Assembly: GCA_905331485.1 (NCBI GenBank)
Contig: CAJNYT010000045.1
Span: forward strand, 4,015-39,825
Direction: 5' to 3'
Source: Rotaria socialis
Lineage: Eukaryota
DNA: 35,811 bases
Below are positions 10,031 through 33,245 of the stretch, in pieces. The notes beneath the pieces were generated by a model. That model did not search any database, was not told the DNA's origin, and saw only the letters and a program-made list of their open reading frames with translations. Each line of letters starts with the position of its first letter. Position 1 is the stretch's first letter. The position numbers and the translations under genes are program-made.

Positions 10031-10497
10031 CATGTATTTTATCAAAGTTCGCTTTCTAACACCTGTTTTATCGCCAAACAGTCATAAGGTTATTACAAAC
10101 TACTGGAGTATTTGCGTCATCAACACATTCTATTGTGAATATTTGTGACATCTATATTAGTCATATAGAAAATTTCATGTTGCATTGAAAAGAAAAATTT
10201 TATTTCTTCCTTCTAGGCAAAGATATTCAGTGTCAAATATAGGGCTCTTGCGTTCTTCTCCAATTCACTCTCTGCATAATCTGTTTTTCAACCCTCTATT
10301 TTCTCTTACTTTTTTTTATACGCAGAATAAATCAACCTCGTTATATGCCAATGCATTAGTTGTTATTGCTATTTAGTCTTGCAATCTTATCTGCAGTCAT
10401 TTCATAACGTTGGTGAAAACTTGTCAGTCCCTCTACACAACCCTTCTCCTTCTATTTCACATACACAATATTCCCTAATTGTGTTGACATTCTCACC

Positions 10498-10510
10498 TAT
10501 ACATAAAAAG
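10498..10510 (+). promoter_or_regulatory. TATA-like element (tatacataaaaag) about 60 bp upstream of the MVP-1 ATG
   Basis: Position relative to the start codon at 10568. Sequence only. Confidence 0.25.
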
Positions 10511-10567
10511 GACTTCTTCTACTGCCGTCATTCTGTTTCAGATTCGCATTACTAGTAAAGAATAAAA

Positions 10568-13500
10568 ATGGCTGATCCAAAAGTTACCGGTGGTATGAAT
10601 ATTTTAATTCTTTTGCATTACGATTCAATCCTCGTTGTTTTTTTTCTTCTTTGAATTTTAGTTTACCGAGTTCCTCCTTTCTACTATCTGCATGTACTTG
10701 ATCAAAATAAAAATGTAAGCCGACTTGAAGTTGGCCCACTCACATTTGTTAAACAAGATCATGAAAAAGTCCTCGTTGGGCCAGAACGCATGATAATAAT
10801 TCCGTATGTTGAAGTTGTTTTTCTTTCTTTGATTTCATTAAAAATTCTATGCATAACTAATTATCTAGTCCTCGCCATTATTGCGTCGTTGAAAATCCAG
10901 CTGTTCGTGATAAAAATGCGAAAGTTGTTATTGATTCTAATGGTCAAGTTAAGTTGTTACATTCGGATGTTGATATTCGATTTGCTCAAGAGCCATTTCC
11001 ACTCTATCCTGGTGAAATACTCAAACAAACTGTAACACCACTGAAAGTTATTGAGCCTAACTGTGCATTACGCCTTCGTGCGGTTTTGGATTTTATTGAT
11101 GAGAATGATCAACAGATACGTGCTGGAGATGAATTTCTCTTCTGTGGACCAGGTAAAACAGCAAAAAAAATATGCTAAATTTTTTAATGTTAAACATGTT
11201 CGAATAAATTTATTTCTAGGAACTTATCTGCCACGTAAAGAAGTTAGCGTTGAAGAACAAATAAAAGCTGTTATTCTGAAATCAAACGAAGCTGTTCGAT
11301 TACGTGCAAAAAAAGAGATGGTTGACCGCGATGGAATTGCACGCGAAACAGGCGAAGAATGGCTTAATCGTACTATTGGTTCATACTTACCATTAGCTTA
11401 CGAAGAAGTTGTTTCAACAGTTAAAGCCTATGTACTAACTGACAAAGTATGTGTTCTTAGGAATCAGTCGTCTTTTTTCATGATGTATTTATTTCATTGT
11501 CCTTTTTTTTCTTCCAGAAAGCTCTTCATTTACGAGCATTGGGCACATTTATTGATTCATTCAAACATAAACGTCTCAATGGAGAAGAATGGCTTGTATA
11601 TGCCTCTGATGCTGAAACATATATTCCAGATGTTTTTGAAGAGGTAGATATAATTAAATATATTTATTTCATAGATGAAAAATAATGAATAAAATATTTA
11701 GGTTGTTGGTGTTGTAGCAGTAACTGTATTAAATTCTCGTCAATACGCTGTTATTATTGATCCTGTTGGTTCAGATGGTAAACCACAACTTGGAAAGAAA
11801 AAGCTTGTTAAAGTATGCTAAATTAAAATCATATGAATTTTAAATTAAAATCTTTCGATTTTTTCTAAAGGGAGAAACAACATTCTTTCTTCAACCCGGT
11901 GAAAAATTAGCTAAAGGTATTCAGGATGTCTATGTTCTGGAAGACGATGAAGGGCTCATTCTTCGTTGTACTGAATCATTTAAAGAAGATGGAGTAAGTT
12001 AATACTTTGTGTGAAATTTTTATTTATCAATTGTATCCGATTGTTTTTATAGACGGTACTACGTAATCCCGGTGATCGTTGGATGATCCGAGGGCCCAAA
12101 GACTATATTCCAGCTGTAGAATCGGAAGTAGTACTCCGACGTAGAGCTACACCATTAGATGTCAACGAAGGTATTTATGTTCGAGATGTTAAAACTGGTA
12201 AAGTTCGATCAGTCATTGGCACTACATATTTATTGACTGAAAATGAAGAACTTTGGGAAAAAGAATTACCCGCCCAAGTTGAACTACTTCTCAATCAAGA
12301 TGCTCGATGTTTTGATGATAAATCAGCACAAAAAGCAACTATACCACCAAGAGATAAATCGAAAGTAGTTGCCTATCGAGTTCCACACAATGCTTGTGTA
12401 CAAATTTATGACTTCAAATCTAAAAAAGCACGCATTGTTTTTGGCCCTGAACTTGTTATGCTCGGGCCAGATGAGCAATTCACAATATTGAATTTATCCG
12501 GTGAAAAACCCAAAGTACCAAATAAAATTCGAGCTATTTGCCTTTTAATGGGACCCGAATTTTCAAGTGATATTGTAACAATCGAATCAAGTGATCATGC
12601 TCGTCTTTCACTCAGACTTTCATATAACTGGCATTTTGAGGTAAGAATTATAAGAGTTTACAAAGAAAAGAGAATGAAGTCTTTGTTTTTTTTTTACATT
12701 ATTTTAGGTTAATGATTGTAATGATCAAAAAGAAGTTACAAAACTTTTTTCAGTACCAGATTTTATTGGTGATTTCTGTAAAGCTGTAGCAGCTAAAATC
12801 CGTGGTACTGTTGCTGGTATTTCATTCGATGATTTTCATAAGAACTCAGCGAAAATCATTCGAACCTCAGTATTTGGTCTTGATGAAAATAAACATGTGA
12901 AAAAAAGACTAGTATTTCCACAAAATAGTTTGGTTCTGACATCGATTGATATTCAAAGTGTTGAACCAGTAGACCAACGAACACGAGATGCTCTTCAAAA
13001 GAGTGTTCAATTAGCTATTGAAGTAAGATGATAAAATACAATTGGTTGAGCTGTGATGTTTAACTTCAATCTATGTCATTTTTTAGATTACAACAAATTC
13101 ACAAGAAGCCCAAGCGAAGTATGTTTAACAAAAAATGAACTTCAAATTTTTATTTGCTTCGTTTTTCCTATAGACATTTAGCTTCACGCACAGAACAAGA
13201 AGCAAAGGGTCATTTAGAACGACAAAAAATTGCTGATGAAGCAGAAGGTAGAGTTTGATTTTATGTGAAATTGAAATTTTAAACATTTTCATTTTTATAG
13301 CTGAAAAGGAACGACGAAAATTATTAGAACTTCAAGCACTGTCATCTGCTGTTGAAACCACCGGTCAATCACGTGCTGAAGCTCAATCAAGAGCAGAAGC
13401 AGCTAAAATCGAAGGTGCAGCTGCCGTTGATCAAGGTATGTCTCATATTGAACATCTGTATCGATATAGATATTATATGTTGTCTTTTCTGTTTTTCAGC

Positions 13501-13907
13501 TACACTTCGTGCACAAGCGTCAAAGATTGAATCTGATGCTGAACTTATACGTTTAACACAAGCACGTCAACTTGAATTACATTATTCAACATCGACGACT
13601 AATTTAGAAATTGAAAAAGCAAAACGACTAGCCGACATTGAAATTTCCGAATTCAAAGAGCATGTTGCTGCTATCGGTCCAAAAACTATTCAAGCTATTG
13701 CTACTAGCGGACTCGATAATCAAGTAAGATTTTATCTTAATAAGAATTCATGCTACACTTTACTAACTGCTTGATTTTTTTCTCATTATTCAGGTTAAAC
13801 TTCTCCAAGCTCTTGGTATTAAGTCAACTTTGATCACTGACGGACGCAGTCCAATTAATCTTTTCAATACTGCCGTTGATTTAGTTGGCGCACCACAAAG
13901 ACAATAA
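10568..13907 (+). CDS. MVP: Major vault protein, copy 1 (14 exons, 839 aa)
   Basis: Exons: 10568-10592, 10662-10803, 10869-11152, 11220-11446, 11518-11643, 11702-11812, 11871-11993, 12053-12640, 12708-13022, 13087-13118, 13174-13247, 13301-13435, 13500-13723, 13794-13907 (stop TAA). Exon lengths sum to 2520 nt with phases consistent. All junctions are GT-AG. Product [66 protein letters not shown]...[45 protein letters not shown]...[40 protein letters not shown]...[61 protein letters not shown]...[22 protein letters not shown] aligns across its length to MVP (vault repeat domains, shoulder, cap-helix). Confidence 0.9.
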
Positions 13908-15007
13908 AACGATTGAGAACAAATCAATCAAGAAAAAACAAAAACTCATAAAATTTGAATTTCTATGTCCAGTTTTAGACACAAGACATTAGTCAGATTC
14001 TTAAAATAAAAACACATGTTTTTTTGTAAGAAGGACAGAACATTGTTTTATACTTATTATTTTTAATATATGTATGTGACCTCAGAATATAGCTTTTTCC
14101 ATTCGAAAAATAAAATAATTTAATAAAATTTGGTATATATATATATATGTTAATTTTATTGAAGTAATTGAGAAAGTTGAGTATGATACATAAAAAAAAT
14201 GATATTCTACCTGAAATGAAATCATTTTCAACGCTAACACAAACGCAAAGGCTCGATTGATTCTAGGGAAATATGAGTTTGGGAAATGCGAATGAATCAG
14301 ATTCGATTTAATTTAGTATTCACCAAAACATTTAGCTTCTATTCAAATGATATTTTAAATGTACTAAACAAAACAAAACACATTTGGGAAGAGTAAATCT
14401 TAAGAGGGCGATTTCTCAAGTGTGACTAAGCCAATGCAACGAACATTCTAACAAAAGATAAGCTCCGACGAGCCTCCGAAAATTGTCCCCCAACTACTAA
14501 TAACTTTGCTGAGTGGATCTTTATTTCAAGTGAAGTATTTGTAAATTAATGGAAGTATGAGATTTTCATCTATGTTTTCTGCCGACGACTCAACAAATCA
14601 CGAAAGTCGCTCTTACACTCTTAGGTTGTTTTTTCGAACTGAAATACGAAATTTCAATTTAAAATAAATTCACGTATCGCAATGAATTTTCGAGGTATTC
14701 ACAAGCCATAAAATAAAAACATCGAAATTGTCAAGGTGAAGTAAAGAAATGCATCGCCATGGGGTGCCTATTTTTGACGCACCTTTTAATACATTTGAAA
14801 AGAGCTAGGAAGTAGATAATAAATAGGCAGTGAAAAAATTGTTTCTTATGATGATCATCACAGTTTATTATTCATACATGAACTACACAATAAGTAGAGT
14901 GCACTTATATAGTTAAATTATTAATACGAAAACAAGAAGGGACGGACAAAAATTATTGTTTTTCGTCAACAAAAAGCAAGTTTTATCTAATAATTTTCTT
15001 CAATGCA

Positions 15008-18000
15008 TTAATTAGGTGCTCCACCCGCATTACTAATTGTATTTGCATTTAAACCACCTAAAAGTCCTTGTCCAAAACCCATTAGATTGATAGGTGAATG
15101 GCCATCAGTAACCAACATGGACTGAAGACCGAGGGCTTGCAAAAGTTTAACTTGTGTATCTGGACCTGAAGTTGCAATGGCTTGTATTGTTGATGCACCG
15201 ATTGATTCAATTTGTAATTTGAATTTGTCGGTTTCAATACGTGACATTTCAGCTTTTTTAGTAATTTCTAATTCATTCTGTTCACGTAAATAGTTAATTT
15301 CAGCTTCTCGTGCCAATTTTAAACGTGATATTTCAGCTTCGGCTTCAATTCGCGCAGCGTCAGCCCTGAGACGAGCTAAACAAATGAAAATTCATTTGTT
15401 CAATTGCATTGGAGAAATAAAATAAAATATCTATACCTTGTTCAACAGACGCTCGTCCTTCAATGAGAGCAGATTCGGCTCGACTTTGTGCTTCGGCTTT
15501 AGCTTGACCTGTGACTTCAACAGCCGATGATTCAGCTTGTAACAGGAGAAGTTGTTTTCGAACCTCTTCAGCTTCAGCATCATCTTTAATACGTTGACGT
15601 TCTAGTAAACCTTTTGCTTCTTGTTCTCGACGCGAAGCTTCATGCTTAGCAGCAGCTTCTTGTGAATTTGTTGTAATCTAAAATGCAGACATACACGAAA
15701 ATTAATCACCACAATTCAATCGATTGTCTTTTATCTTACTTCAATGGCTAATTGAACACTCTTCTGAAGAGCATCTCGCGTTCGTTGATCAACTGGTTCA
15801 ACACTTTGAATATCAATCGATGTAATGACAAGATTGTTTTGTGGAAAAATAAAGTTATCTCGTATTTTTTGATTTGCATCAAGACCAAATACAGACGTAC
15901 GAATAATTTGAGCTGAATTCTTATGAAAATCATCAAATTGTGTACCAGCAACAGCACCACGAACACGTGAAGCTATAGCTTTAGCTGCATCACCAACAAA
16001 ATCTGGTACAGAAAAAAGTTTGGATGCTTCTTTGTCGTCATCAATATCTGATATTTCAAAATGCCAATTGTATGAAAGTTGAAGTGAAAGACGAGCATGA
16101 TCAGCTGTTTCAATAACAATCACATCAGTAAAAAAATCTGGTCCAAGAAGTAAGCAAAGTGTTTGAATTTGATTTGGTTTTTTTGGTACACTGCCACTCA
16201 ATGAAAGTAATGTAAAATGCTCATCGGGTCCAAGCATAACAAGTTCAGGGCCAAATATAATACGTGCTTTCTTAGCTTTATAATCATAAATTTGTACAGC
16301 GGCATTGTGTGGTACACGATAGGTAACTAGTTTTGATTTGTCACGTTTGGCAGCATTTACGTTTGAACTTGTTGCTGTTGTTGCTGCTTGTTGTTGAGAT
16401 TGATTTTTATCTGATGTTTGACTTCGTGTGAGAACATTTCGTTCACTTAAAGCATCACGAGACAATAGTTCTTCAACTTTCTTAGGTAATTCTTTTTGCC
16501 ATAATTCTTCATCTTGTGTTAACATATAAGTTTCACCAATGACGGCGCGGACACAACCAGTTTTGATATCACGAACATAGATACCTTCATTGGCATCCAA
16601 TGGCAAAGCTTTTCGACGTGTAACAACTTCAACTTGTGTTGGAGGAATATATTCACTAAAATTCACAAGAATAATATTAATTTAGACCTTTCATAGAGAC
16701 ATTAAATATCTTACGTTGGACCACGAATCATCCAACGATCACCGGGATTTCGATTAACATTAGCTTGCGTATCTTTAAATGCTTCAATACATTTTAGAAT
16801 AACACCTTCATCTTCACCTAAGATAAACACATCTTGAATACCATTTTGAAGTTTTTCACCGGGTTGAAGAAAGAATGATTTTTCACCGACAACAAGTTTC
16901 TACGAAAGAAAACAAAATCAACATAATTAATCGCTCTGATTTCATTGAGATAAAAAACTTGCTTTTTTCCCTAATTGTGGTTTTCCATCAGCAACTGGAT
17001 CGATTATAACACAATATTGACGTGATGTCAATGTTACTACATTAACAACAGAAACTAATTGTTCATAGACACTAAGAATGTGTGTTTCAGTGTCAGCAAG
17101 TGTTACAAGCCATTCTTCACCATTCATACGTTCTTTACCGAATTCATCGGTAAAAGTTTTTAATGCACAAAGATGAAGAGCTTTTTTATCGGTTAATACA
17201 TAAGCATTTTCTACTGAAACCACAGTTTCCTAAAATTAACAAGATTTGAATTTCGCATACCGACGAGATTTTGCACTTACATATGCAAGTGGTAAATATG
17301 CACCGGTCTTTTTAATTAACCACTCTTCACCAGTAACACGCCGTTGGCCTGTACGATCAACGATTTCTTTTTTTGCGCAAAGCCTTATAGCTTGATTAGA
17401 CGAGATAACTGTAGCACGAATTTGTTCTTCAACGCTAACTTCTTTACGAGGAATATAAGTAGCTGGCCCTTCAAATAACCATTCATCTCCAGCCCGACGT
17501 TGTTCGCCTGCTGTTTCATCTTGAAAATCTAGGACAGCTTTTAAGCGTAACGCTGAATTAGCAGGAACAACTTTTAATGGAGTAACAGGCTTTAAAATAT
17601 AAAAAGTAGTTTTGTTTTATTCTCAATAGAAAATGTTTAGTGTTTTTTTTTATACTTGACGAAGAATTTCACCGGGATAGAGAGGAAAAGGTGATTGATC
17701 AGGTTGTGAAAGACGAATTTCCAAGTCAGCATGAACAAGTTTCGCTTGTCCATTGCTATCGAAAATAACTGCGCCAGCATCATTGCGTACTACAGGTGAT
17801 TCAATAACACAGTAATGACGGGGCCTAAAAACACATCCAAATTTTCACTTTCTTTCAGCGTCTTTTCTTAGATTAACAATTATAAACGTACGGTACTGTA
17901 ATCATTTTTTCTGGTCCGATGGTGACTGTTTCATTGTCTTGTTTAATAAATGTTTTGGGACCAATTTCAAGTCTCGTAACATTTGTATTTTGATCCAAAA

Positions 18001-18079
18001 CATGAATATAATAATAAGGAGGAATTCGATAAAGTGGACCAGAATCACTTTTCTTATCCATAGTTGTTGCTTTACTCAT
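15008..18079 (-). CDS. MVP: Major vault protein, copy 2 (8 exons, 881 aa), convergent with copy 1
   Basis: Exons (minus strand, 5-prime to 3-prime): 18079-17892, 17824-17656, 17589-17281, 17229-16963, 16899-16715, 16655-15740, 15680-15437, 15375-15008 (stop TAA). Lengths sum to 2646 nt, phase-consistent. Product [78 protein letters not shown]...[58 protein letters not shown]...[24 protein letters not shown] is about 65-70% identical to copy 1. A 28-aa low-complexity insertion ([28 protein letters not shown]) falls in the variable loop. Intron 4 uses a GC donor (aaaaaa|GCAAGT...tttcgtag|aaactt). An upstream in-frame TTG-initiated extension shown in the ORF track is not a real start. Confidence 0.88.
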
Positions 18080-18149
18080 TGTGTATGTGTTTGTAGAATG
18101 TTCGTATGTCAGTAACAATCTATAGTCAAGAAAAAAAAACGTTGATTCT

Positions 18150-18160
18150 CTTTTATAAAC
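18150..18160 (-). promoter_or_regulatory. TATA box (minus strand TTTATAAAAG) about 75 bp upstream of the MVP-2 ATG
   Basis: Plus-strand ttttataaac at about 18151-18160. Position relative to the ATG at 18079. Confidence 0.3.
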
Positions 18161-18919
18161 TCAAAATATAAAGACTATGGTATTGCATGTTGAATGATTA
18201 AGTATTTTTCAAAGCATTGTGCAAGTTTGCCCCATGTCAGAGAAAGGAAGAAAAGAAAAACAAATATCGCGGTAAAATCTATATTTCACTCTCTTTTACA
18301 TCTTGGTGTTCTTGCACAAGTTTTTATTTTTTCAAGCTTTTTGTTTTCAAGGCTATTTGCAGTGCAGAAATAGGCAAATATTTTGGAGGTTTAATTCAGC
18401 AGTGAATAGAATTGCGTTTGAAAAAGAAACCTCAGAATTACTCATTCTGATAAATTACCTAGAAATTACACCGAAATGAGAAACGAAGCAAATTTCAACC
18501 AAATATGCAACCGACAAAAACAAAAATTTATCAGTTTTACTTTCATAGATCAATCCAGAAGTGATTCTGAAAAATGTAGAGTATGACGTTTTTTTTACCA
18601 GAAGGTAGTAGTGTTGTAAAGAATTTGTTTTTAACCGAGCATTGCAAGCAAACTGCTGAAAGATAAATGGGGCATTTGCTTTTAAAGAAACAAAAAAGGT
18701 CATTCGTGGAAAATTTATCACAGATTATTTCAAACTGATGTAACTGTGATCATATTGAATGAAGATTCAAATCAATCGTAGTGCCACATCATTTTACAGT
18801 TTTTCTCAATCTACGCATTTTATATATACAGTTGAGAATGATGCAAAAGAATTCTGAGCACAACAGATAAATAATTTTACAATAAGGATATTAAATGATG
18901 CATTGTCATACTAATGAGG

Positions 18920-19100: not shown

Positions 19101-20715
19101 GAACTCGCTATCAACTTTTATGTTTATCTCAACTATCAACTCTGTCTCTCAATTACATTTGAGCTTGAAAAGAGGGTATCAGTGTGAATTGTTCTTATGT
19201 TGTTTGTCGTTGTAATATAACAATGGCGAGAAAATATAGTTTTCAAAAACTTCATATCGTTGCAAGAACGAGTAGTAGCACTTAAAAACAAGTCAAAGAA
19301 ACAAGATAGACGAATAGTATTTGGCTTGAGTATATGACTTCGTGATTTAAAATACAATAGAAAATATTATGCAAACAGACCGAGATTTCATCATATTTTT
19401 ATCGGGTTATTAAAGAAAAAGGTCATATAATGTCACTTTTCTTAGCTGACACAAGATAGTACCTCTTAGTTGTCTGCTTGCCAATTCTCTGTTGAGTTGA
19501 TTACTCTTTATCGTTAGCCTATGTGAAAATAAATCTATAATCATATGTCTATGCACGTTATAATACACGTGTGAATAAATTGACATTGTTTTCAGAACAA
19601 TGCCCCAATTTTCTACTTGGTGTATCAATGTGACTACCTGATTACTATTGGGTTATATTCTTCGAAGCTACATCACCAAGAGAACAAACAGCAATGACCT
19701 CTCTACCGATGCCAATAGATGATTCTCCGAGATTGGTTTACATTTTCAGTATGGTTTCTATTATTATCTTCCTACTGATTATCGTCTGCTATATCTCAAT
19801 CGTTAGAGAGTGCTTAGAAGCAACACCTAGAAGAACACTGCCGACACCTCGATACTTTCAAATAGATGAGTATCCACAATTGGTCAACTCCTATGCTGAG
19901 CAACCCCTCGGTCAACCCGTGGAATTCTAACGCCATCAGATATCACCCATAATCGATCTCAACCAATATCAACAATGAATTTCGAAAACTTAAACTATAC
20001 CGATAATATTATTCAGTTTATTGGTTGACAACTTTATTGAAATAGTTTATTTCTTGGCAAGGATATATGTTGCTGATAAATGGGTGCCTAATATTGCTCT
20101 TTATACGAATGCTCCAATAACCGACTTCTGTCTTATGTTGTTCCACTTTTTGGTTAACTAGTGCACTAGTCTCTCCTTAATATGAAGAAGCTAAAAGCAG
20201 GCTCTTTAATTAAATGTTTCTTTCCTGATTGCTTTTAATCATAATCCAAACCTTATGCGATTGCAACCTATTTTCAGAGTGGTACACATCAAATAATTCG
20301 ATTGAGCATTTAATGCGTGAGAATGGCATGTATATTCTCCGGTTAATGTCAACATTTTCTCAAAAATTGCCAGGATGAGTTTACATATTTCGATAAAGAC
20401 AACTTCTTTCTGCAGATACAATTCAATTGTTATTGTTTTCAAAAATATGTTATACATAAAATTGACATATTCGTGTCGTAATGCGTATTTACCAAAAAAA
20501 ATCCTTTATCATCTTTACGAGATCTTTCTAAAAACTGATAATGTTATTTGATCAAAGAGACAAAATTGGTCGTTGCTACCAACTGTATTACATCCCAGCG
20601 ATACTGCTATAAATCTTGTCGTTGGTGGGATCATATTAACAAGTGAATGTTGATGGAATGACGATGTCAAATTTTTCATATGAACTTAAAATACAAGCAC
20701 AATAACAATAGTGAA

Positions 20716-22057
20716 TCATGAAAGCCCTACCGGCAACGACTTACTAAATACTGAACTTCCAAAACCAAATGAATTTTTATTTTGTGAAAAATGTACTGTC
20801 ATCGTTAACGAATCTTTGTCATTTGGATTTTTCAATCCGAACCATCCAAATAAATTGAACATAGCTAGTTTTAAATCGATCAAACGAGAGAAGTTTTGAA
20901 CGGACAAAAGTTGATAGTAGGTCATGTCTTTATCTATTTTGAAAAAGCAATCGTCTTCGACTTTAGACATATTCACTGGTACGTTTGTTTGAAAATGAAT
21001 AATATTTAGTGGTTCATTAGTGATGACACCATTCCAATGTGGCGTTACATTGAGATGACACTACAAAAAAACGAAATGAAAAACACTCCACAACGGGATA
21101 TATGACAAAACTAACTTCTGGCTCTGCTCGACCATGCATAAGCAAATTCTGTGAATCGATAATACTGAACGTGCCATCCGGTAAGCGAGTATTGAGCAAA
21201 ATTACTGGCTTCAAGCCGAGAAAGGGTGGTGGATTCAATAAGGAATTTCCAATAACACTTTGATACAAATCAACATTTGTGAAATCTACATTCTGATAAA
21301 CTCCATCACCAATGAATGATTGACGAAGATCAGCGCTCGTGAACTTTGCTTCATACATTTGGTTGTCACGAAATTTTGCCTTATTCAAATTGGCATTCTG
21401 AAAATTCGCAAGCGCAAGATTGTTCAACAGAAAGTTAGAACCAACCATTGACGCACTCTCAAACACTGCATATGTGAGAGTACAACCATCGAATATGACA
21501 TTTTCTGCGATGACTCCAGGCAAATAAAGAAAGGAAAGATCACAGACTTGTGTCGAAGATTGCACAAGCTTCATTCCACTAAAATCCGCCCCACGTATAT
21601 CAATTTTCGGTGTGATATCGTGTCGAATCAGACGACTTTCATACAAAAAAAGAAACACATCACGCTTACGGGTAGGGTCAAGATTTCTTAGGACCGTTAA
21701 TGTTTGAACGCGAATTTGCAGAAGAGACTTGTTAATATTTTGTTCAAAATTTTCATCTAAAAGAAGATCTCTCATATCATCCATATACTCTTTGAAGAGA
21801 ATCCTTCGATTCGTTTCATCGGCTTGTCTTTGATCTTGGTCACGTGTCGCCCTAGCCGCAGCATCTTGTTGTAACGTGAAGACAATCGTAAACACTCCAA
21901 AAACAATAGTTGGCAATGCAGCAAGTGTAAGCTTGAATATATTCATACATTTAATTGGCTTTGATTTCTTACGAGTCACCACATCAGATGACGTTTGTGC
22001 CGCAGATGATGACACGATTGAATTTCCTCGTGTGAAATCAAATGAACTGTTATCCAT
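20716..22057 (-). CDS. Pentapeptide-repeat single-pass membrane protein, tandem copy A (2 exons, 428 aa; C-terminal tail lost to stop)
   Basis: Exon 1 22057-21116, exon 2 21060-20716. The 55-bp intron has donor gaa|GTTAGT and acceptor tttttttgtag|tgtcat. The reading frame continues across the intron, and the exon 2 frame is conserved codon-for-codon with copy B. Product: about 45-aa N-terminal tail, hydrophobic helix LTLAALPTIVFGVFTIVFTL, a juxtamembrane charged segment, then about 24 consecutive pentapeptide repeats (ADFSG MKLVQ ... ANFQN ANLNK AKFRD NQMYE AKFTS ADLRQ ... VDFTN VDLYQ), then CHLNVTPHW...IIHFQTNVPVNMSKVEDDCFFKIDKD...FGLKNPNDKDSL...SKSLPVGLS*. The downstream 195 bp (20520-20715) still aligns in frame with copy B's C-terminal extension but carries TGA and TAA codons. 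Confidence 0.75.
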
Positions 22058-23379
22058 AGTTTGTTGAAAGATGAGAGCACGAAAAATTTCACGTATTATA
22101 ATAAATTCAAGGTTGATAGTATCTAAAATCTATATTGTGTTGTGATTCGTTCGAACATACAAAAAAAGTAAAAAGAACCAGTTATTTATACCTGTGTGGG
22201 AAGCTTTATATTAACATAATAGGCATTCGCAGCAAATTGAGTTTGACGGATGTCTATGATATCCTCTGAATCTGACCTCATCGTCAATTGTAACGTTTTC
22301 TATCACGAACTATATATTCCGAATGACGTACCTTTCACAATAGTTTTTCATAGAGTAGTCATTGTATCGATAGATAAAACAAAACAATCTCTCGACTGAT
22401 CTAACAGCTTTGTAGAATGAGAAAAAACATCTTCTATCATTGGCCAAAAGCGATCTTTTGAAAAATGTCAATTTATTAGCATAATTCACAAGATCAGTGT
22501 TGAGTGGCTAATGACATTTCTATTGAAAGTAAATGAATTCAATGTGTTAGTCAAAATATCAAGATATATTGTAGAAAAAAAAGTAGAACATCATCTAATA
22601 CATTGGATTAACATTTTTCTTTGTCATAAAAGTCGAAATTTCAATTGCATCTGATTAAAACTACCTGCTGTGACAATACGAAACCAGGCTTTGTGCTCTT
22701 CTGATGAGTAGTATGGATACGATGAAATATTTTCTGATTTCGACACAAACATTCTGCTAACAGTTACTTTTCGGACATCTGAGAATCCTTGGATTATTTG
22801 ATAATCTTCTCTCATGAACTAGGGAAAAGTCTACTGATGCCAATGCAATAGTAGCGATTGTTACAGTCATATTATTAGTCAACCCAATATTCTTTGCAAT
22901 TATGTCTACTTTTCGTATCTTGAAATTCAACAAATGGGTAGTGCACAGCAATTATTCAAATTGTATATTCTTCGAATAGCTGTTGGCAGTTAGAGACCTG
23001 CAGGTTGTAGATAAGTGTTCTGTTCTGCCCTAGTAGTACAGGGTAGATTGTAGGGTATAACTATTTTAATCTGCCAACCTGTAATTAACCTAATGTATTC
23101 CGTATTGTTGGTGTCTCGTCAGACCTATTCAGTAGGAAATGTTTGGAAGCCTGTAGCCTAGCTCACCATTGATTGAGATCGGTCTCGGTCACGGTGCATA
23201 AAACCAGATGTGCCGCTACTATATACTTTATACATCTATCTACTAAGTTTTCCACATAGTTTAGTTTCTTAGTTGACCACTTTATTAAGATGATTTATTT
23301 CTGGACGAAAAAGTCCTTTGCTCATAAATGGGTACCTAATATTGCTATTTTTAGTCTTCTCCTATAACTGACGGCTGCC

Positions 23380-23913
23380 TTTTTGTGTACTCAAAAAGTG
23401 AGTACACTCTAGAATCGGCCAGTGTGTACATCCGGCCGGCCGGTCGTAGGCACGATAACTTTCGAAAGGAGAGTCAGATCGTGATAAAATTTTCCATACA
23501 GTTCAATCGCATGAATATCTCGACCGAGTTCGAAGATGAGAAGGATCCTTCAAGAAATGGTTGAGTTATCGAAAAAATTGACATTTTTGACCATACCATC
23601 CCTGAGGAGAGGTACAGGGATTCTTTTCAAAAAACAAATTTTTCCCAGAATTATTCACAACATATACAAATCGACTCAGTTTTTAACGCTGATTTCGAAT
23701 CTGATATTAGTTTTGAACTAAATCGTAGCTTTCTAACGAAACATCGCCTGAAAGCCGTCTCAAAATGCACAAAAACTGCATCCAGAAATCAAATTGTCTA
23801 GTTTCTCATGATAAATTTGGTGTTCAGACATTTATTCTAGAATGACTCATATGTCTCATGCACTTTTTGCAGTACACATAACTCTCGGATGAACTCCGAA
23901 GTTTCCACATTTA
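23380..23913 (+). mobile_element. Interspersed repeat family, copy 3 (about 534 bp); an insertion present in duplication unit 2 only
   Basis: The flanks cctataactgacggctgcc | ... | ttctgttctactttttgtccagccgatgcac are contiguous in the paralogous unit 1 sequence (ccaataaccgacttctgtc ttatgttgttccactttttggttaactagtgcac at about 20110-20160). The element is therefore a post-duplication insertion. Same termini as copies 1 and 2. Confidence 0.7.
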
Positions 23914-24279
23914 TTCTGTTCTACTTTTTGTCCAGCCGATGCACTATTTTTTCATTGTTATCAAAAGACTAAACATATGTTTTTTAATGAAATATTTCTT
24001 TCATAATTGCTTTTAATCATTAACCAAAGCTTAGATGGTTATAATTTTTATCGTGGATTAGCTTTTATATGTGTACTTGGAGAATAGCCGCCAGCCTATT
24101 CGTTCATCAATGTGAAAATTTTGTTTTCAACAATTGTGAGTAAGATCATATGACGTTTCGAGTTCGTAGCTACATTTCACAGAACTATAATATCTATGAA
24201 GGCATCGTCGTGTTGAGAACACACAGTAATTTTTTTATTTTTTTCAAAAACATTGTATACATAAGATTCATTGTAATAT

Positions 24280-25818
24280 CTACAAGGTCTTTCTATAAAT
24301 TGATAATTTCACTTGATCGAATAGACAAAATTGATCGTTACTACTAGACACAATACACGCCAGCAATAGCACTATAAATTTTGTCTTCTCCGGAATGATA
24401 TTGACAAGAGAAAGTCGCTGGAACGATGTCAAATTCTTTATAACCACTTGAAATACAAGCAGAATAAATACAGTGAATAGTGAAAACTCGGTCGATAATG
24501 ACTTACTAAATATTGAACTTGCAACATCAATTGAATTTCTGTTCGGTGAAAAATGTATAGTCGCCAATAAGGAATCCATGTCATTTGGATTTTTCAATCC
24601 AAACCATGCTGATAAATTGAACATGGCTAATTTAAGATCAATCATATGAGAGAAGTTTTGAACAGATATGTGTTGGTAACTGGTCAGATCTTTATCAATT
24701 ATAAAGAAACAGGCGTCTCCGACTTGAGACACGTTCGCTGGTACATTTGCTTGAAAATGAATAATTTTCATTGGGTCATTGTTCTTTACATCTCTCCAAT
24801 GTGACGTGAAATTGAGATGGCACTAGAAGAAGCGCAATGAAAAATATTCTAAAACGCAATATTCTGTAAAACTAACTTCCGTCTCAGCTTGATCACTCAA
24901 AATCAAATTTTGCGAATTGATATTACTGAACGAGCCGTTCGGTATACGAGTATTCATCAAAATATTTGGCTTAAAGCCGAGATACACTATTGGATTCAAT
25001 AATTCATCTCCAATGATACATTGATATAGATCTACATTAGTTAAATCCATATTTTGAACAACGCCACCATGAATGATTGATTGAACGAGATAGGCACCGG
25101 TAAACTGCGTTTGATAAAGCTGATCGTCGTGAAATTGAGCTTTAGTAAGATTGGTATTTTGAAAATTAGCACGTAATAGATCACTCAAAATAAATTAAGA
25201 GCCAGCCATCGATGAATTCTCAAATACGGCGTCTATGAGAGTACAACCATCGAATGTGGTATTTTCGAGGTACACTCCGGGTAAATGAAGAAAGGGAAAT
25301 TCGCATGACTGTGTTGATGTTTGTATGAGTTTCATTCCACTAAAATCTGCCCCACGTATATCAATATTTGGTGTGTGATCGTGTCGAATTAAACGGCTTT
25401 CATACAGAAAAATAAAAACATCCCGTTTACGAGCCCGATCAAGATACATCAAAACGGTCAATGTTTGTACTCGAATCTGTAATAGAGACTTGTTGATATT
25501 TTGTTCGAAATTTTCATCTAAAAGAAGATCTCTCATATCATCCATATACTCTTTGAAGAGAATCCTTCGATTCGTTTCATCGGCTTGTCTTTGATCTTGG
25601 TCACGTGTCGCCCTAGCCGCAGCATCTTGTTGTAACGTGAAGACAATCGTAAACACTCCAAAAACAATAGTTGGCAATGCAGCAAGTGCAAGCTTGAATA
25701 TATTCATACATTTAATTGACTTTGTTTTCTTACGAGTCACCACATCAGATGACGTTTGTCCCACAGATGATGACACGATTGAATGTTCTCGTTTGAAATC
25801 AATTGCATTTTTGCCCAT
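24280..25818 (-). pseudogene. Pentapeptide-repeat single-pass membrane protein, tandem copy B; in-frame TAA inside the repeat domain (probable pseudogene or needs sequence verification)
   Basis: Exon 1 25818-24877 (942 nt, same length as copy A exon 1), 54-bp intron (gaa|GTTAGT ... ttcttctag|tgccat), exon 2 24822-24280. TAA at 25195-25197 replaces the AAC codon of copy A (MAGS* versus MVGSN) in the same frame with no frameshift. Exon 2 extends about 65 codons beyond copy A's stop and encodes a second hydrophobic segment FSLFTVFILLVFQVVI. The N-terminal 60-residue TM region is nucleotide-identical to copy A. Confidence 0.7.
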
Positions 25819-26689
25819 GATTCTTTGAATGATAAAGACACTAAAAAAATCTGAGAAATCAAAATCAAAATCGATATTATCTAAAAGCAATATTGCAGAA
25901 AAACTTCTCTGAAAAATTAATTAACACTTTCTATCTAAAAATATGCATTCGTCTAGCTAAATCGCACCTCTCTATTTAGTATTTCAATATCATGGGAGTC
26001 GTTCTGACAACTTCTTAGATAGACTTCTTGTAATGTGAAGAAAACGCCGAATAATAACAATTAAAATTATCGTATCACCGATGATCTCATGAAAAATGTT
26101 AATATAGTGGCATTATTAATAAGGTGAATATTGACGTGCTAGTCGTACTTGTATTCAAAGCAAATAAACTCGATATATCAGTGGCGATATCAAGTTAAAA
26201 CCTACAAAACAGTATCCCAATATCATTGAATACATTAGATTAGCATTTTTCTTTTTCATAATAGTCGCGATTTCAATTGTGTTAGATTGAAACTACTAGT
26301 TATCAAAATACAAAGGTACACTTAGTGTTTTTCGTATGAATCATATTTGCATTATGAAACATTCTGTGACGTCGACATTAATATTCTACCCACAGTTGAT
26401 TTCCATACATCTGACAATCGCTAGATTGTTTGATACTGTTTTCTAATAAAAAAAACTTTATTAGATAGACTATGTGGTCAAGTAATATAGAATGACTATC
26501 ACATGTTCGATAATTACCTATCTCAAGTTAAAATATACTCATTTAAATTCATGAGGTTGTCCAGCGAGTAAGATATATGTATGGCTATCACTGTCGAATC
26601 CGCCCGCATCCACTCCCCGTTTATCATTACTCTATCACCGATCGAAACAAAGTGATCAATCATGCAACACTGTAATTTGAAAAAACGTC

Positions 26690-26900
26690 TAGATTTTTAT
26701 TTTCAAATATGCCTTAGACGACGAAAAGGAAGAACCACACACCAACAATTGCACACATATGAACAAAATTTATAGACACAACGAAAACAAAAAAGAAATC
26801 GCCAGATTGAACAAATACAATACACACACATATACGACAAAACAAAAAAAGAAGAATATTTCATACGTTTTTCGTGATCTGGTTTCTAAATAGACAATCA
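26690..26900. repeat. A/C-rich low-complexity tract (CA/ACA-rich)
   Basis: cacacaccaacaattgcacacatatgaacaaaatttatagacacaacgaaaacaaaaaagaaatcgcc...acacacacatatacgacaaaacaaaaaaag. Intergenic, between the SUN gene 3-prime end and the upstream side of the pentapeptide copy B promoter. Confidence 0.5.
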
Positions 26901-27062
26901 TACAAGAAACAAACTAAGCGTATTTTTATTATATGTTTTACAAACAAAAACAAAGGTTAATTATACAAAAACATCAAAACGACTTATTCAATATGAACAA
27001 TCGATATGATGGAATCATAGTTAAGTCTTTTTCGGAAAAAGAAAACAATAGCGCAATTATCT

Positions 27063-29739
27063 TTAAACAGCTGTTGGCGTGACACTTTGCATGTCGCCAT
27101 GAACTCGAAATCTGTACAAACATGTATAAGCTGGATTACCCCAATTTGATGTTATTTGTACTTCAATATATTCAACAACGGGTACATTAGCAATCTAAAA
27201 TAGAATAGAATTAGTTATATTGAAAAAAAAAACATATAAACGTCACATACTTGAGGTTTAAATCTTTGAAGTGCCGCACCATTTTCAGCATCATAATTAT
27301 ATCGACCAAGAACAGTACCTTCCTTATCATTTTTATCTTTCAAAGCCTAACAAAAACAAACAGACACAAAGAATATTATTCTTATAATAAAAGATTAAAT
27401 TTTCTTTTCATTTACATAAACTGTAAAATTATTTGGTGCACTATTTGTATGTCCAACGATAGAAATACTTTTCGATAGATGTTCAAGTACGAATTCAGTT
27501 GGTATAACAGGTACAGCCAATCGAATAACTACACTTCCATGATTACCTTTAAATGGAAAACATTGACCAGGCATACGTCCATGCTAGAAGATAAATTTTA
27601 TTTAAAAATTCAAACAAAAAAATTCAAGAACAAACTTTAATGATTATATCTGGTTGTTTTGACATATGAACAATAGGAATGCCAAGAAATTTCACAACTT
27701 TTTGTTGAGGTTCATCTGTATATTCTTCACAACGTGTATCAACAACTTTTCCTCCTAGAAACAAAAACGATGATGATAGCTTTCATTACTCTTTTCAATC
27801 TATTTACCATTAGCTTCTAATGCATAATCAGCTTGTCCAGTTTCATCAGCTGAATATTCTTCGATTAATTTTCGAGCCAACTAGAACAAAAATTTTTATT
27901 TAAAAAAATATTGATTTTCCTTAAGATTTAATTTACTTGAATGAATTCTCTTTCTTGATCAGGTTTTAAAGCATGTCGTCTAGAAAACAGCAGAAAATTT
28001 GTATTTTTTTGTTAGTACCTTCGATTAAACTTACGTTCCAACAACTTTCTCACGTTCTTGTTTAAGTTCTTCGATAAGTTTATTGACTTTTTGTAGGCCG
28101 GCTTCATAATATTCCTTAGCATTATCAGTTGTTGTTTCAACAACACCAACAACACGATTTTTAACACCACGAAACGAGCCTAGTAATTTGTTTTTCGTCG
28201 AAGAGCAAAAATTGCTTAACGATTTTAATACAGAATTTTTAACATTTATTGTTGAACGATAAACTTTTTGAAGCTTTAGAAGGCCAAGATTATATGTACG
28301 AAAACGAGTAAAATCAGTAGTATGTTGAATATTTTGACAAATGGTATTCACTTTTGAATTTCGATTATTTGCAAATGGTTTACAAGCCAAATAAGGTACT
28401 AAAAAAAATAGATATAAATAGATTAATAAGAATATAAATAATTGACCTACATGCATAAACAGTAAGTAAAATAATAAGTGGTATAAGTATCCACCATGGT
28501 AAAACTTTGAATTTGTTCCAAACTGTATCAAAAATATCGATAGGTAAATGGAAAGCTTTTTTTAAGCAACAAACAGTTGTTTTACAGCAATTCCTTAAAT
28601 GTTTACAGCTACCATCATCGTGATGATCTTTTCGGTGTTTTGTTGCTTTACGTTGTTGATGTTGTTGTTCACTCTCATTATCGTGTGGTGTTGAATGAAC
28701 TGGACGTGAACGAAGATTATAGCCTGTTGCTCGACTACCTGATGCTGATGATTGAGATGATGTACGAATAAATCTTGTACCACCGATTGTCCCTTCACTT
28801 GTTGGTGAATCTGGTGTTGATGCTTGTTGATGACCACCAGTAAGTTGACATACACGATCGCAAACAGCACCATAGCCATTGGCTAATTGTGATCGAACGG
28901 TACAAAATAGATGACACGGTAATGAGAGTAATGATGCTGTACGATTTTGATCTTCATTATGTAAACTACGACGAGCCATGACGGGAATCTCGTATGTAGT
29001 TGTTTGTAATGTAGGTGCATAGGCATTGCTAGAGAGAATAATAAACAATGGATTTAATTTGTCTTAAAAATCGATTCGCTACGATATGAATTATTCGTAA
29101 ATAGCTTTCATCTATTCGATCTTGATCGTTCGAAGCCTCCTACTGAGATTGACATTTTAGAAGAGAAGCGAATAAATAATTATGTTATATATAATCTACA
29201 TCGTAGCGAAAGTTGTAATAGAAATTTTCATTTTACTCTACACTTCCGGTAGAGCACATCTGCTTAGGGAATATCAGATAAAGTTGATTAATACAGTAGT
29301 GCATGTATGTGCATCCGGTTGAAGAAGCTTATAATCACCCTTACTAATCAATAACAATAGGCTCAAATAATAAGTACAATATCTGACGACTACTCAACAA
29401 TCAATGGATTTGATTTCCTCTATTTTAAATACTCACCTATGAGCATATGTATAACTTGTCGATTGGAGATCACTGGAATAAAAAAAAGTAAAAAATTTTG
29501 ATAAAAATTTAATTGAGGCAAATATTTTACTGAGTAGGTGATTTAGTACTTTCGAGTACTTCTTGTACGCTTCGATTAGCAGCAGCCGATGCCATTCGAC
29601 GAGTTACTACTGAATCAGTTCGTGCTTCGGTTTCAATATACATTGGTCGGCGAGTTGTTGTCGACGAACTCGTAGTTGTTGTTCTATTCGATGATGATCG
29701 AACTTCAGTTATATCATCATCGGTGAGTGTATCAGTCAT
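27063..29739 (-). CDS. SUN-domain (Sad1/UNC-84) inner-nuclear-membrane protein, 9 exons, 593 aa
   Basis: Exons (minus): 29739-29531, 29028-28451, 28398-28035, 27979-27937, 27880-27808, 27754-27636, 27583-27416, 27346-27251, 27194-27063 (stop TAA at 27063-27065). Lengths sum to 1782 nt, phase-consistent. Donors include gtaaaat, gtaggt, gtaagt, gtaaat, gtttgt, gtatgt. Product: S/T-rich N-terminus (MTDTLTDDDITEVRSSSNRTTTTSSS...), TM helix VLPWWILIPLIILLTVYALPYL, a coiled-coil-like region, then a C-terminal SUN domain ...DYALEANGGKVVDTRCEEYTDEPQQKVVKFLGIPIVHMSKQPDIIIKHGRMPGQCFPFKGNHGSVVIRLAVPVIPTEFVLEHLSKSISIVGHTNSAPNNFTVYALKDKNDKEGTVLGRYNYDAENGAALQRFKPQIANVPVVEYIEVQITSNWGNPAYTCLYRFRVHGDMQ. This matches the conserved blocks of SUN1/SUN2/UNC-84 (GxCWxFxG, TLEHIPK, SSAPKDFAVYG, NWGHPEYTCLYRFRVHG). 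The ORF track's M at 29048 and at 29748 are TTG codons; the true starts are the ATG at 29739, with a first splice joining exon 1 to the acceptor at 29029. Confidence 0.85.
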
Positions 29740-31494: not shown

Positions 31495-31895
31495 TATGAT
31501 GCGTTCGGAGAATATTCACGGAAACTCGATTAAGTGCTAGGGAACCAAACTTAGCAGATATAATAGATATAGAGATATACAGCATATAGGGAGGAGGGGG
31601 GGGGTCTAGGAGATACAGGATATATATTTTTTTCTCTTTCATCTCTTAATTTTTTAAAATTATAACTCAACATAAATAAAATTTTCCGTCACAGATATTA
31701 CTGATATCAATATTTATTTGTTGAGCCTTGGTCATTGCTTATCAATCTCCTATAACTTCTATAACTCCTGTAACCCCTAGATCTCCTAGGCCCCCTATAT
31801 GCTGTATATCTCCCTATCTATTATATCTGCTAGGTTTGGTTCCCTAGCACTTAATCGAGTTTCCGGGGATATTCTCGGAACGCATCTAATCAATT
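31495..31895. repeat. MITE-like inverted repeat: two arms of about 118 bp (about 90% identical) around a 170-bp AT-rich spacer
   Basis: Left arm gcgttcggagaatattcacggaaactcgattaagtgctagggaaccaaacttagcagatataatagatatagagatatacagcatatagggaggagggggggggtctaggag. Its reverse complement recurs at about 31783-31895 (ctcctaggccccctatatgctgtatatctccctatctattatatctgctaggtttggttccctagcacttaatcgagtttccggggatattctcggaacgc). Contains a G10 run at the inner end of the left arm. Confidence 0.6.
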
Positions 31896-33159: not shown

Positions 33160-33245
33160 CCATGCAATAAAAACCGCATGAAAATCGGCGGTTAACCGCG
33201 GTTATACCGGTCCGGTTACTGGCTCCCATGTCAGTGTAATTTTCG
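33160..33245 (-). repeat. Inverted copy of the GGGAGCCGGTAACCGG(A/C)CGG repeat (left boundary of a candidate foldback element)
   Basis: The reverse complement of cggcggttaaccgcggttataccggtccggttactggctcccatgtca is tgacatgggagccagtaaccggaccggtataaccgcggttaaccgccg. This matches 35148-35200 (tgaaatgggagccggtaaccggagcggtaataccgcggttaaccgc). Confidence 0.55.

Follow-up and report, generated by a model that had tools for sequence, protein, structure and literature searches.

A 181-bp segment that is identical in two otherwise diverged tandem genes of the bdelloid rotifer Rotaria socialis is very probably the footprint of non-reciprocal ectopic (interlocus) gene conversion from copy A to copy B, laid down in several events after the split from R. 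magnacalcarata. The sequence-only reading had proposed a recent gene-conversion tract, and this proposal was borne out by phylogenetic incongruence, by the divergence of the same segment in the sister species (dS 0.51), by the lack of an RNA signal, and by a permutation test. It is refined here: the direction is from A to B, the acceptor is neutral and partly pseudogenised, and the tract is made up of nested events of different ages that are still polymorphic.

In the window (the whole stretch of DNA that was analysed, 35,811 nucleotides), two pentapeptide-repeat membrane-protein genes stand in tandem on the minus strand, B upstream of A (Table 1). The minus-strand order is Sad1/UNC gene, B, A, and major vault protein gene, and synteny with the Sad1_UNC and vault genes was demonstrated. 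The closest proteins are those of R. magnacalcarata and R. socialis. The protein of gene A differs from R. socialis P0053 by one residue; an exact look-up of the spliced 475-aa product gave no record, P0053 being the nearest protein, and no annotation exists for the A allele of the window itself. Exon 1 of gene A passed the Pfam gathering thresholds for PF13599 (60.8 bits, cut-off 38) and PF00805 (51.5 bits, cut-off 20.2), and fragments of gene B scored 20-29 bits on PF00805. As in other pentapeptide-repeat proteins (PF00805, PF13599), the repeat region of gene A shows A(D/N)LXX-type periodicity, which corresponds to right-handed quadrilateral beta-helices. The protein is set apart from them by its architecture: an N-terminal tail is followed by one transmembrane (TM) helix, a charged juxtamembrane segment, and the repeat region, and the C-terminal ~170 aa form a domain without a Pfam match. 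All matches from named sources at 37% identity or more belong to Rotaria or Adineta, other matches are mostly environmental sequences, and the best bacterial match is 31% identical; the domain architecture is bdelloid-specific.

Table 1. Features of the A/B locus, in window coordinates (cds, position in the coding sequence).
Feature	Position	Strand	Details
Gene A	20515-22057	-	Intact; 475-aa pentapeptide-repeat membrane protein; splice model built on P0001/P0053
Gene A exons	22057-21116, 21060-20745, 20684-20515	-	Introns of 55 and 60 nt
Gene B, upstream tandem paralog	24280-25818	-	Homologous exons 25818-24877, 24822-24507, 24446-24280
181-bp perfect block, gene A (donor)	21747-21927	-	cds 131-311, residues 44-104; from exact-run extension, translation, hydropathy
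181-bp perfect block, gene B (acceptor)	25508-25688	-	23 sites with the A state in B_win where both R. magnacalcarata B sequences differ
Maximal conversion footprint in B	25496-25784	-	Limits are the nearest orthology-sorting sites, 25785 and 25495; from site-pattern tables
Minimal conversion footprint in B	25528-25774	-	From site-pattern tables
Donor segment in A matching the maximal footprint	21735-22023	-	Minimal 21767-22013
Older 5' part of the footprint in B	25689-25784	-	Pairs with A 21928-22023; 13 A-state sites, 5 A/B differences
Central patch in B	25573-25603	-	cds 216-246; pairs with A 21812-21842; converted in the window haplotype; from haplotype tables
Antisense 63-aa "ORF"	21876-22067	+	Twin at 25637-25828; listed only through allowed bacterial GTG starts

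Direct comparison of the two copies, at an offset of 3761 bp, delimited the maximal exact run to 181 bp. A perfect tract of 185 bp had been claimed (21750-21934, paired with 25511-25695); the tract is real, but that interval contains a single mismatch at its position 179 (21928 A versus 25689 G). Identity at third codon positions across the block, which had also been reported, was confirmed. The block codes for residues 44-104 of the A protein (TLAALPTIVFGVFTIVFTLQQDAAARATRDQDQRQADETNRRILFKEYMDDMRDLLLDENF), that is, for the TM helix and juxtamembrane segment as originally described; the juxtamembrane part is charged, and the most hydrophobic stretch of 19 residues in the protein (43-61) lies in the encoded segment. 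The flanks had been put at about 100 bp and about 95% identity. This holds on the higher-coordinate side (5' in the gene sense), where 21928-22023 shows five differences in 96 bp (95%), at 22002, 21999, 21964, 21958, and 21928; on the lower-coordinate side, identity drops at once, with a first mismatch at 21746 and 60-bp windows falling sharply to 41-52 of 60. Outside the tract, A and B are indeed diverged, although at 74.2% identity (1338 ungapped columns) instead of the 70% given earlier. The chance of a run of at least 181 bp is about 1.5e-21 at 74% identity, and that of a 181-bp run is 5.7e-15 at the 83% identity of the R. magnacalcarata paralogs in the same segment. In a Sawyer-type permutation test on the 461 polymorphic sites of an alignment of four sequences, none of 20000 shuffles gave a run as long as the 34 concordant sites observed.

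Comparison of the window copies (A_win, B_win) with their R. magnacalcarata orthologues (A_mag, B_mag) revealed which copy had changed. In the 181-bp block, identity is 100% for A_win/B_win, 93.9% for B_win/A_mag, 85.1% for B_win/B_mag, and 83.4% for A_mag/B_mag; outside the tract, it is 74.2% for both A_win/B_win and B_win/A_mag, 93.0% for B_win/B_mag, and 94.2% for A_win/A_mag. Over the maximal footprint, B_win/B_mag identity is 84.8% (93.0% outside) and B_win/A_mag identity is 94.8% (74.2% outside). A_win/A_mag identity over the same footprint is 95.5%, which equals that of the flanks and indicates that A is unaltered there. At 36 sites, B_win shares its state with A_win and A_mag, and B_mag differs. 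At four sites (21847, 21818, 21788, and 21758), a state derived in R. socialis is common to A and B, and the R. socialis-derived A states at cds 211, 240, and 300 are also found in R. socialis B copies. The tract, thus, groups R. socialis A with R. socialis B, whereas the flanks group orthologues. Conversion from A to B after the species split follows from these patterns, because R. socialis B has the A state at the 36 sites, R. magnacalcarata B does not, and the flanks sort by orthology.

Sites of the orthology type return at 22024 and above, and at 21734 and below, so that B keeps its own sequence on both sides of a footprint of about 250-290 bp in total. These acceptor flanks rule out an origin by crossover, by formation of a chimeric gene, or by a fresh partial duplication; copy number and the 3761-bp spacing of A and B are constant in all R. 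socialis loci. Synonymous divergence followed the same pattern. In the tract, dS is 0.017 for A_win/B_win, 0.125 for A_win/A_mag, and 0.51 for A_mag/B_mag, which reaches 0.71 in the rest of the gene; between R. socialis B and B_mag, it is 0.44-0.52 in the tract versus 0.08 outside. The transfer was non-reciprocal, in that the acceptor B changed and the donor A did not, with a possible rare exception at 21788. This site is G in every B copy of R. socialis and in most of the A copies, whereas the A copy of locus L010 and both R. magnacalcarata copies have an A; it could reflect an occasional B-to-A transfer, and a strictly one-way direction is thus not proven. The nearest outgroup has 59-60% protein identity, and most of the 36 sites were polarised by parsimony and by a retained central patch (see below). 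GC-biased gene conversion was not seen at the converted sites (13 W>S versus 19 S>W).

The two copies form an old duplicate pair, with a dS of about 0.7. Gene A is under purifying selection (omega 0.36 against A_mag). For B, omega against B_mag is 0.86-0.92 outside the tract and 0.77-1.16 in the two gene halves; B has been drifting neutrally since R. socialis and R. magnacalcarata separated. In the window haplotype, its reading frame is broken by a TAA at codon 208 (25195-25197), and, with omega of about 1, this B is a pseudogene. The resulting 207-aa product is annotated in R. socialis as P0054. Selection maintaining this truncated product was considered and rejected, with omega at 1.0-1.2 for codons 105-207. 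The TAA is carried by the window, L009, and L010 (R. socialis haplogroup I), and the frame is open in L004-L008 and L011, so that the loss of B is polymorphic in the species. Both R. magnacalcarata B sequences have a TAG at codon 211, which is independent of the R. socialis TAA. A 530-bp insertion downstream of B was inspected for inverted repeats and TIRs, and nothing clear was found.

Other R. socialis haplotypes (loci L004-L011; L007 is GCA_965120245.2 and L011 is GCA_965120295.2) revealed that the perfect block is composite. A B-type central patch is retained at cds 216-246 in L004-L008 and at cds 216-229 in L010 (14-31 bp). In L004 and L006, it carries the R. magnacalcarata B states at cds 216, 219, 229, 240, 242, and 246, which anchors the A-to-B polarity, and it is surrounded by blocks of 63 and 65 bp that are identical to A. 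The haplotypes form a nested series, from L004/L006 to L010 and then to the window and L011. Since other haplotypes carry shorter tracts with an unconverted patch, several nested events must together account for the perfect block. The window differs from L004 by 61 mismatches over 17.5 kb, eight of which fall in cds 194-246. Both B haplogroups, stop-bearing and intact, hold converted and unconverted forms. L009 is 100% identical to window positions 24966-33818 (8.85 kb) and is probably the same sample, so that it is not independent support. The 5' part of the footprint reflects an event that is older than the A changes specific to R. socialis at 22002 and 21928, because B lacks those changes. 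A single conversion followed by later mutation was disfavoured: all five A/B differences lie within 96 of the 289 bp, and partial-tract haplotypes exist.

It is extremely unlikely that a functional constraint at the nucleotide level, such as a structured RNA, an antisense transcript or ORF, or a regulatory element, holds the 181 bases fixed. Identity at third codon positions, an antisense frame that is open for 63 codons in five of five sequences examined, and two weak tmRNA-model matches (21876-21954 and 25637-25715) are what such a constraint would have in its favour. However, A_win and A_mag differ at 11 of the 181 block sites (6.1%), as in the flanks, B_win and B_mag are only 85% identical there, and other R. 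socialis B haplotypes differ from A within the block. Nucleotide-level constraint is absent, because the R. magnacalcarata copies are only 83% identical in the segment, with a dS of 0.51. The tmRNA-model matches were the only output, both sub-threshold, of an Rfam scan of 20000-26500 at E<=1, and were rejected as chance, their 12-12.6 bits being far below the gathering score of 47. Folding of the block on both strands gave no excess stability over shuffled sequence (z-scores +0.37 and +1.30). The antisense frame contains no Met in any of the five sequences, begins with GAA in B_mag, and overlaps the perfect block only at 21876-21927 (52 bp); without an ATG in a eukaryotic genome, with a GTG or GAA "start" and only partial overlap, it was rejected as a gene. 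The earlier suggestions that these frames are a by-product of the identity, and that constraint is less likely than conversion, agree with the ORF, dS, Rfam, and folding results.

An assembly artefact, in which A reads or k-mers were threaded through B (a mis-resolved bubble) and the identity, or its central 31 bp, is unreal, is improbable, although less so than constraint. The identity blocks on either side of the L004-type patch are where de Bruijn graphs mis-thread; L007 has an A copy with a 179-bp insertion that ends in N and joins a converted tract to a B-type flank, a scaffolding error; and L009 may duplicate the window. A search of the literature for the sequencing technology of the GCA_9651202xx/3xx R. 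socialis assemblies yielded nothing useful. Against an artefact stands the fully converted B of L011, which lies on the other, intact haplogroup with different flanking SNPs, and the L007 insert itself links a converted patch to B-specific flanking sequence. L010 switches state between cds 229 and 240, a junction that would be too short for an assembly graph artefact. None of seven A copies has a B-type patch, so that an error would have to act in one direction only, and the 36-site bulk of the footprint recurs in every one of the nine B sequences of R. socialis, which come from at least seven assemblies. As read from assemblies only, the final step, which left an A-type central patch inside B, apparently occurred. 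A reversed polarity, with A and B alike in the ancestor and R. magnacalcarata B overwritten, for example, by a third divergent paralog or an ohnologue, is scarcely credible. Without an outgroup, the 36 sites at which only B_mag differs are formally symmetric, but L004/L006 and L010 keep the R. magnacalcarata B states in the patch, so that this sequence type is ancestral to B in both species. Furthermore, the A_mag/B_mag dS of the tract (0.51) is comparable in magnitude to that of the remainder of the gene (0.71), the R. socialis-derived A states in B require transfer within R. socialis, and zero differences in 181 bp cannot predate a split that left 6% divergence between orthologues.

Gene conversion from A to B could have proceeded as follows. 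A lesion in B would have been repaired by homology-directed repair with A, 3.76 kb away, as the template, most plausibly through synthesis-dependent strand annealing (SDSA) or short-patch heteroduplex repair in the course of double-strand break (DSB) repair. At least three or four such events very probably took place in the R. socialis lineage, all within the same ~290 bp, at the coding region's 5' end. An early event covered approximately cds 45-130, which now shows 5% A/B divergence. One or more later events homogenised approximately cds 131-215 and 247-311 in every B haplotype of R. socialis and copied substitutions specific to R. socialis A. One or more recent, short events (14-181 bp) then erased the remaining B-type central patch in some haplotypes, including that of the window; the converted patch in the two B haplogroups may have arisen twice or been passed between homologues. 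A search for long stretches of identity already in place, from which conversion might have started, found none above 24 bp: paralog identity in the tract before conversion was ~84%, with identity blocks of 24 bp at most. This is a poor substrate for homologous recombination by yeast or mammalian standards, which counts against the conversion reading. Each event would have lengthened the identity blocks (from at most 24 bp, to 63-65 bp, to 181 bp), and may thereby have raised the odds of the next.

Classic cases of interlocus conversion are the globin genes, CYP21A2/CYP21A1P, and the opsins. The A/B tract resembles interlocus conversion between tandem paralogs in being short (tens to a few hundred bp) and non-reciprocal, in linking paralogs a few kb apart, in its abrupt boundaries, in clustering by species within the tract and by orthology in the flanks, and in having one decaying partner. 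The direction is the harmless one, from the functional gene into the decaying copy, and is opposite to that of the CYP21 disease situation. Human interlocus conversion is reportedly found at roughly 92% identity, whereas A and B shared only about 84% in this segment before conversion, with no identical block above 24 bp. Unlike in the classic cases, several nested events still segregate among haplotypes. The A/B tract is a textbook ectopic conversion tract, a known kind of event, and explains the anomaly fully without a hidden RNA, gene, or artefact.

Interlocus gene conversion has been reviewed (Chen et al. 2007, Nat Rev Genet 8:762, cited in PMC6264785), and bdelloid genomes, those of non-desiccating Rotaria among them, are well established to undergo gene conversion (PMC5916493, PMC6264785). 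In bdelloids, it has been described for homologues of the "former allele" kind (Mark Welch et al. 2008; Flot et al. 2013; see PMC5916493 and PMC6264785 for discussion). The animals, the presumed homologous-recombination repair machinery, and the identity tracts are the same in that case; however, it involves collinear homologues that differ by a few percent, and A and B are tandem paralogs ~25% apart (dS about 0.7). Since Rotaria do not desiccate, it was argued that conversion must stem from ordinary mitotic or germline repair (PMC5916493). Bdelloid repair was also hypothesised to tolerate divergent partners, with the loss of mismatch-repair and recombination-fidelity genes permitting recombination between diverged copies (PMC6264785). 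The A/B tract is consistent with this hypothesis, but is no test of it.

A start at ~84% identity, at least three recurrences in the same 290 bp, transfer always from the functional to the decaying copy, and continuing polymorphism are the basis of a more speculative reading. In this, the locus would serve as a natural reporter of homeologous recombination that is unusually permissive and recurs in a bdelloid that does not desiccate and is putatively asexual, a possibility that we regard as tentative and rather doubtful. A variant, in which repeated homogenisation of the TM and juxtamembrane module was selected, is less likely.

The converted tract has practical consequences: it places the 207-aa fragment derived from B in A's 90% protein cluster, a warning for annotation, and it caused the scaffolding error in the public assembly L007, a warning for assembly. 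Because intermediate haplotypes survive, the succession of events can be read directly, as can the lengths of the tracts (for the latest events, 14 to at most 181 bp). The locus provides a clean, polarised, and datable case in bdelloids, in which gene conversion is central to the debate on long-term asexuality. If low-homology ectopic conversion were common genome-wide in Rotaria, it would provide direct support for the repair-gene-loss proposal (PMC6264785).

Genes A and B are tandem minus-strand paralogs in an AT-rich window (33.6% GC), for which a bacterial ORF model gives few genes. The 346-aa minus-strand ORF at 21017-22057 was found to be exon 1 of gene A, a eukaryotic gene with introns of 55 nt (GT..AG) and then 60 nt (GTAAGT..AG). 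Its spliced product contains a hydrophobic helix (residues 43-61) and pentapeptide repeats that exceed the Pfam thresholds, shares 91% identity with a Rotaria magnacalcarata protein, and differs from the R. socialis database protein P0053 by a single residue. Gene B, read up to its TAA, matches the 207-aa R. socialis protein P0054 exactly, and the contig bearing P0054 (L009) is 100% identical to positions 24966-33818, which identifies the DNA as that of R. socialis. Family matches of at least 37% identity with a source name are all bdelloid (Rotaria or Adineta), the remainder being mostly unnamed environmental sequences; beyond bdelloids, bacterial pentapeptide-repeat proteins, such as those of Dictyobacter, reach at most 31% identity. 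This taxonomic spread would be compatible with an old horizontal acquisition.

Features of the window and their coordinates
Feature	Coordinates	Strand	Remarks
Gene A exons	22057-21116, 21060-20745, 20684-20515	minus	spliced product 475 aa
Paralog B	25818-24280	minus	TAA at 25195-25197
~530-bp repeat	23381-23911; also 9500-10027, 4941-5244		copies 77-85% identical
Major-vault-protein paralogs, convergent	11051-13774; 14292-18298	plus; minus	Pfam Vault, Vault_3, Vault_4, MVP_shoulder on both
Inverted repeat, ~129 bp	31498-31626/31760-31886		85% identity; arms ~130 bp apart; upstream of Sad1/UNC gene region

The gene order in coding orientation is Sad1/UNC, B, A, major vault protein. R. socialis, a bdelloid rotifer that does not desiccate (PMC7943196), has this order at seven other loci, and in R. 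magnacalcarata it is found in pieces. Compared with the flank downstream of A, that of B contains the ~530-bp repeat as an insertion (junctions corresponding to A 20133/20134). The repeat is also present in the R. magnacalcarata B contig L002 (8168-8711); it has no clear terminal inverted repeats, and is probably a non-autonomous transposable element. Directly downstream of B in L002, where A would be expected, lies a reverse-transcriptase/endonuclease retroelement (RVT_1, Exo_endo_phos_2; 9856-13375), and no A copy follows before the end of the contig. The vault paralogs share 72-80% DNA identity, with one 41-bp stretch at 93% (11222-11262/17460-17420).

Compared at a constant offset of 3761 bp, A and B share a longest exact run of 181 bp (21747-21927, equivalent to 25508-25688); elsewhere they are 74.2% identical (1338 columns). 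The sequence-only reading had described a perfect 185-bp interval (21750-21934/25511-25695); that interval holds one mismatch, at 21928/25689. The flank that it placed at about 95% identity lies on the 5′ side of the gene (21928-22023, 5 differences in 96 bp), and the abrupt divergence that it reported is seen on the gene's 3′ side, where identity collapses immediately. The analytic probability of a 181-bp run is ~1.5e-21, or 5.7e-15 assuming the 83% identity of the same segment in the sister species, and in permutations of the 461 polymorphic sites, 0/20000 shuffles reached the observed 34 concordant sites in a run. The run is no chance event.

The window copies were aligned with R. magnacalcarata A (contig L001, 94% identical) and B (L002/L003, 91% identical). 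Nearly all informative sites outside the tract sort by orthology, A from B. From 22013 to 21767 the pattern switches, with 36 sites at which both window copies and R. magnacalcarata A agree and R. magnacalcarata B alone is different. A derived state is present in both R. socialis copies, and another state in both R. magnacalcarata copies, at 21847, 21818, 21788, and 21758. The two window copies have a synonymous divergence of 0.017 in the tract, against 0.51 for the R. magnacalcarata copies and 0.44-0.52 for the B orthologues, whose value outside the tract is 0.08. The tract carries the signature of a non-reciprocal transfer from A to B that took place in the R. socialis lineage once the two species had separated. 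The original observation holds, at coordinates that are shifted slightly, and its interpretation as recent gene conversion is supported. An isolated site at 22051/25812 (coding position, cds, 7) has A in both R. socialis copies and G in both R. magnacalcarata copies, with orthology-sorting sites within 2 bp; the same mutation may have occurred in parallel, or a micro-conversion may have taken place here, beyond the main tract.

Pairwise nucleotide identity of window (win) and R. magnacalcarata (mag) copies
Pair	181-bp block	Outside tract
A_win/B_win	100%	74.2%
B_win/A_mag	93.9%	74.2%
B_win/B_mag	85.1%	93.0%
A_win/A_mag	93.9%	94.2%
A_mag/B_mag	83.4%	75.1%

Haplotype tables show a nested series of conversions, with more than one event. 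The outer footprint, bounded at 22024/22013 and 21767/21734, is common to 9/9 R. socialis B sequences. Loci L004-L008 keep a B-type patch at cds 216-246, together with a private G at cds 194; in L010 the patch is reduced to cds 216-229, and in the window, L009, and L011 it is entirely gone. Seven linked downstream SNPs separate B group I (window, L009, L010), with a stop at codon 208, from group II (L004-L008, L011), with an intact frame. Both groups include one member with more conversion and one with less; the last patch therefore either underwent conversion twice, once in each group, or was transferred from one homologue to the other. Of the 17,541 positions compared between the window and L004, 61 are different, and 8 of the 61 fall within the 53 bp of cds 194-246, where 0.18 are expected by our arithmetic; these differences were therefore templated and did not arise by point mutation.

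The 5′ segment (21928-22023) is the older part of the footprint, with 13 A-state sites yet 5 A/B differences, and with R. socialis A-specific changes at 22002 and 21928 that have no copy in B. Its event (5.2% divergence) may be roughly dated near the species split. The latest homogenisation would date back, as a rough 95% bound, no further than ~29% of the way to that split, because the 181 bp contain zero differences, scaled to the 5.8% divergence of the A orthologues. The most recent event in the window's lineage has a length of at least 14 bp (cds 216-229) and at most 181 bp.

Nucleotide-level constraint, or an embedded structured or antisense RNA, had been offered as an alternative reason for the identity. 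This explanation is rejected, because these bases are free to vary, both among orthologues and in the paralogs of the sister species; the best Rfam match (12.6 bits, threshold 47) and the folding z-scores of the block (+0.37 and +1.30) also argue against it. Antisense frames of 63 codons are open in all sequences, but they start with GTG or GAA, without ATG, and overlap the block by just 52 bp, in keeping with the earlier view of them as a by-product. R. magnacalcarata B could in principle be the changed copy, as a pattern in which it alone differs is symmetric without a close outgroup. However, R. socialis L004-L008 and L010 retain its states in the central patch (cds 216, 219, 229, 240, 242, and 246), and this type of B sequence is therefore the ancestral one in the two species. 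Moreover, synonymous divergence of the R. magnacalcarata paralogs in the tract is similar in magnitude to that of the remaining gene (0.71), and A substitutions specific to R. socialis (cds 211, 240, 300) are found in R. socialis B copies. At 21788/25549 (cds 270), all R. socialis B and most A copies have G, while the A copy of L010 and both R. magnacalcarata copies have A, which could mean that a polymorphism of A has been retained, or that transfer now and then runs from B to A.

An assembly artefact would concern the final 31-bp patch only, which was seen in assembled sequence, and L007 has an apparent scaffolding error at exactly the same place. This is unlikely, as the converted patch is found again in L011, of the other haplogroup, the state junction in L010 lies within 11 bp, the B-type patch occurs in no A copy, and the L007 insert itself joins the converted patch to B flank. 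Most of the footprint is shared by all R. socialis assemblies. In the A copy of L007 (GCA_965120245.2; 12126-12136 and surroundings), a 179-bp insertion ending in N combines the converted tract with B-type downstream sequence, and the resulting gene model has 516 aa. Here the identical block seems to have misled the scaffolding or the merging of haplotypes. Another gene model, P0056 (916 aa), reads through from B into A as a fusion.

Omega of the acceptor B since the species split, outside the tract, is 0.86-0.92 (1.0-1.2 for codons 105-207, 0.77-0.85 for codons 212-475), compared with 0.36 overall for A. Its premature stops are independent and lie three codons apart: codon 208 is TAA in R. 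socialis group I, and codon 211 is TAG in R. magnacalcarata L002/L003. In both species, then, B is decaying, and because other R. socialis haplotypes have an open frame, its pseudogenisation is polymorphic within R. socialis. No selection maintaining a truncated product was seen in the omega of codons 105-207. Two public gene models for R. magnacalcarata, P0003 and P0004, conceal the stop by placing a predicted intron over it.

The transmembrane and juxtamembrane segment is the best-conserved DNA of the paralogs (83% versus 75% in R. magnacalcarata) and contains several of their longest pre-existing identity blocks. None there exceeds 24 bp, and the first conversion therefore took place on a poor substrate. 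That event would have enlarged the identity blocks to 63-65 bp (L004 type) and later ones to 181 bp, and longer blocks should progressively ease further exchange. A break or gap in B may have been repaired with A as template, 3.76 kb away, on the same chromatid, the sister, or the homologue, the likely pathway being synthesis-dependent strand annealing with short heteroduplex tracts. Converted sites show no GC bias (13 W>S versus 19 S>W).

Missing mismatch-repair and homologous recombination genes have been discussed in relation to conversion between diverged bdelloid copies (PMC6264785), and conversion in non-desiccating Rotaria has been linked to mitotic processes, not desiccation (PMC5916493). 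The A/B locus fits both ideas without testing them. The feature is a case of a well-known process, gene conversion, and its local interest lies in the nested polymorphic events, in the transfer from A into a pseudogenising B, and in the low-homology start.
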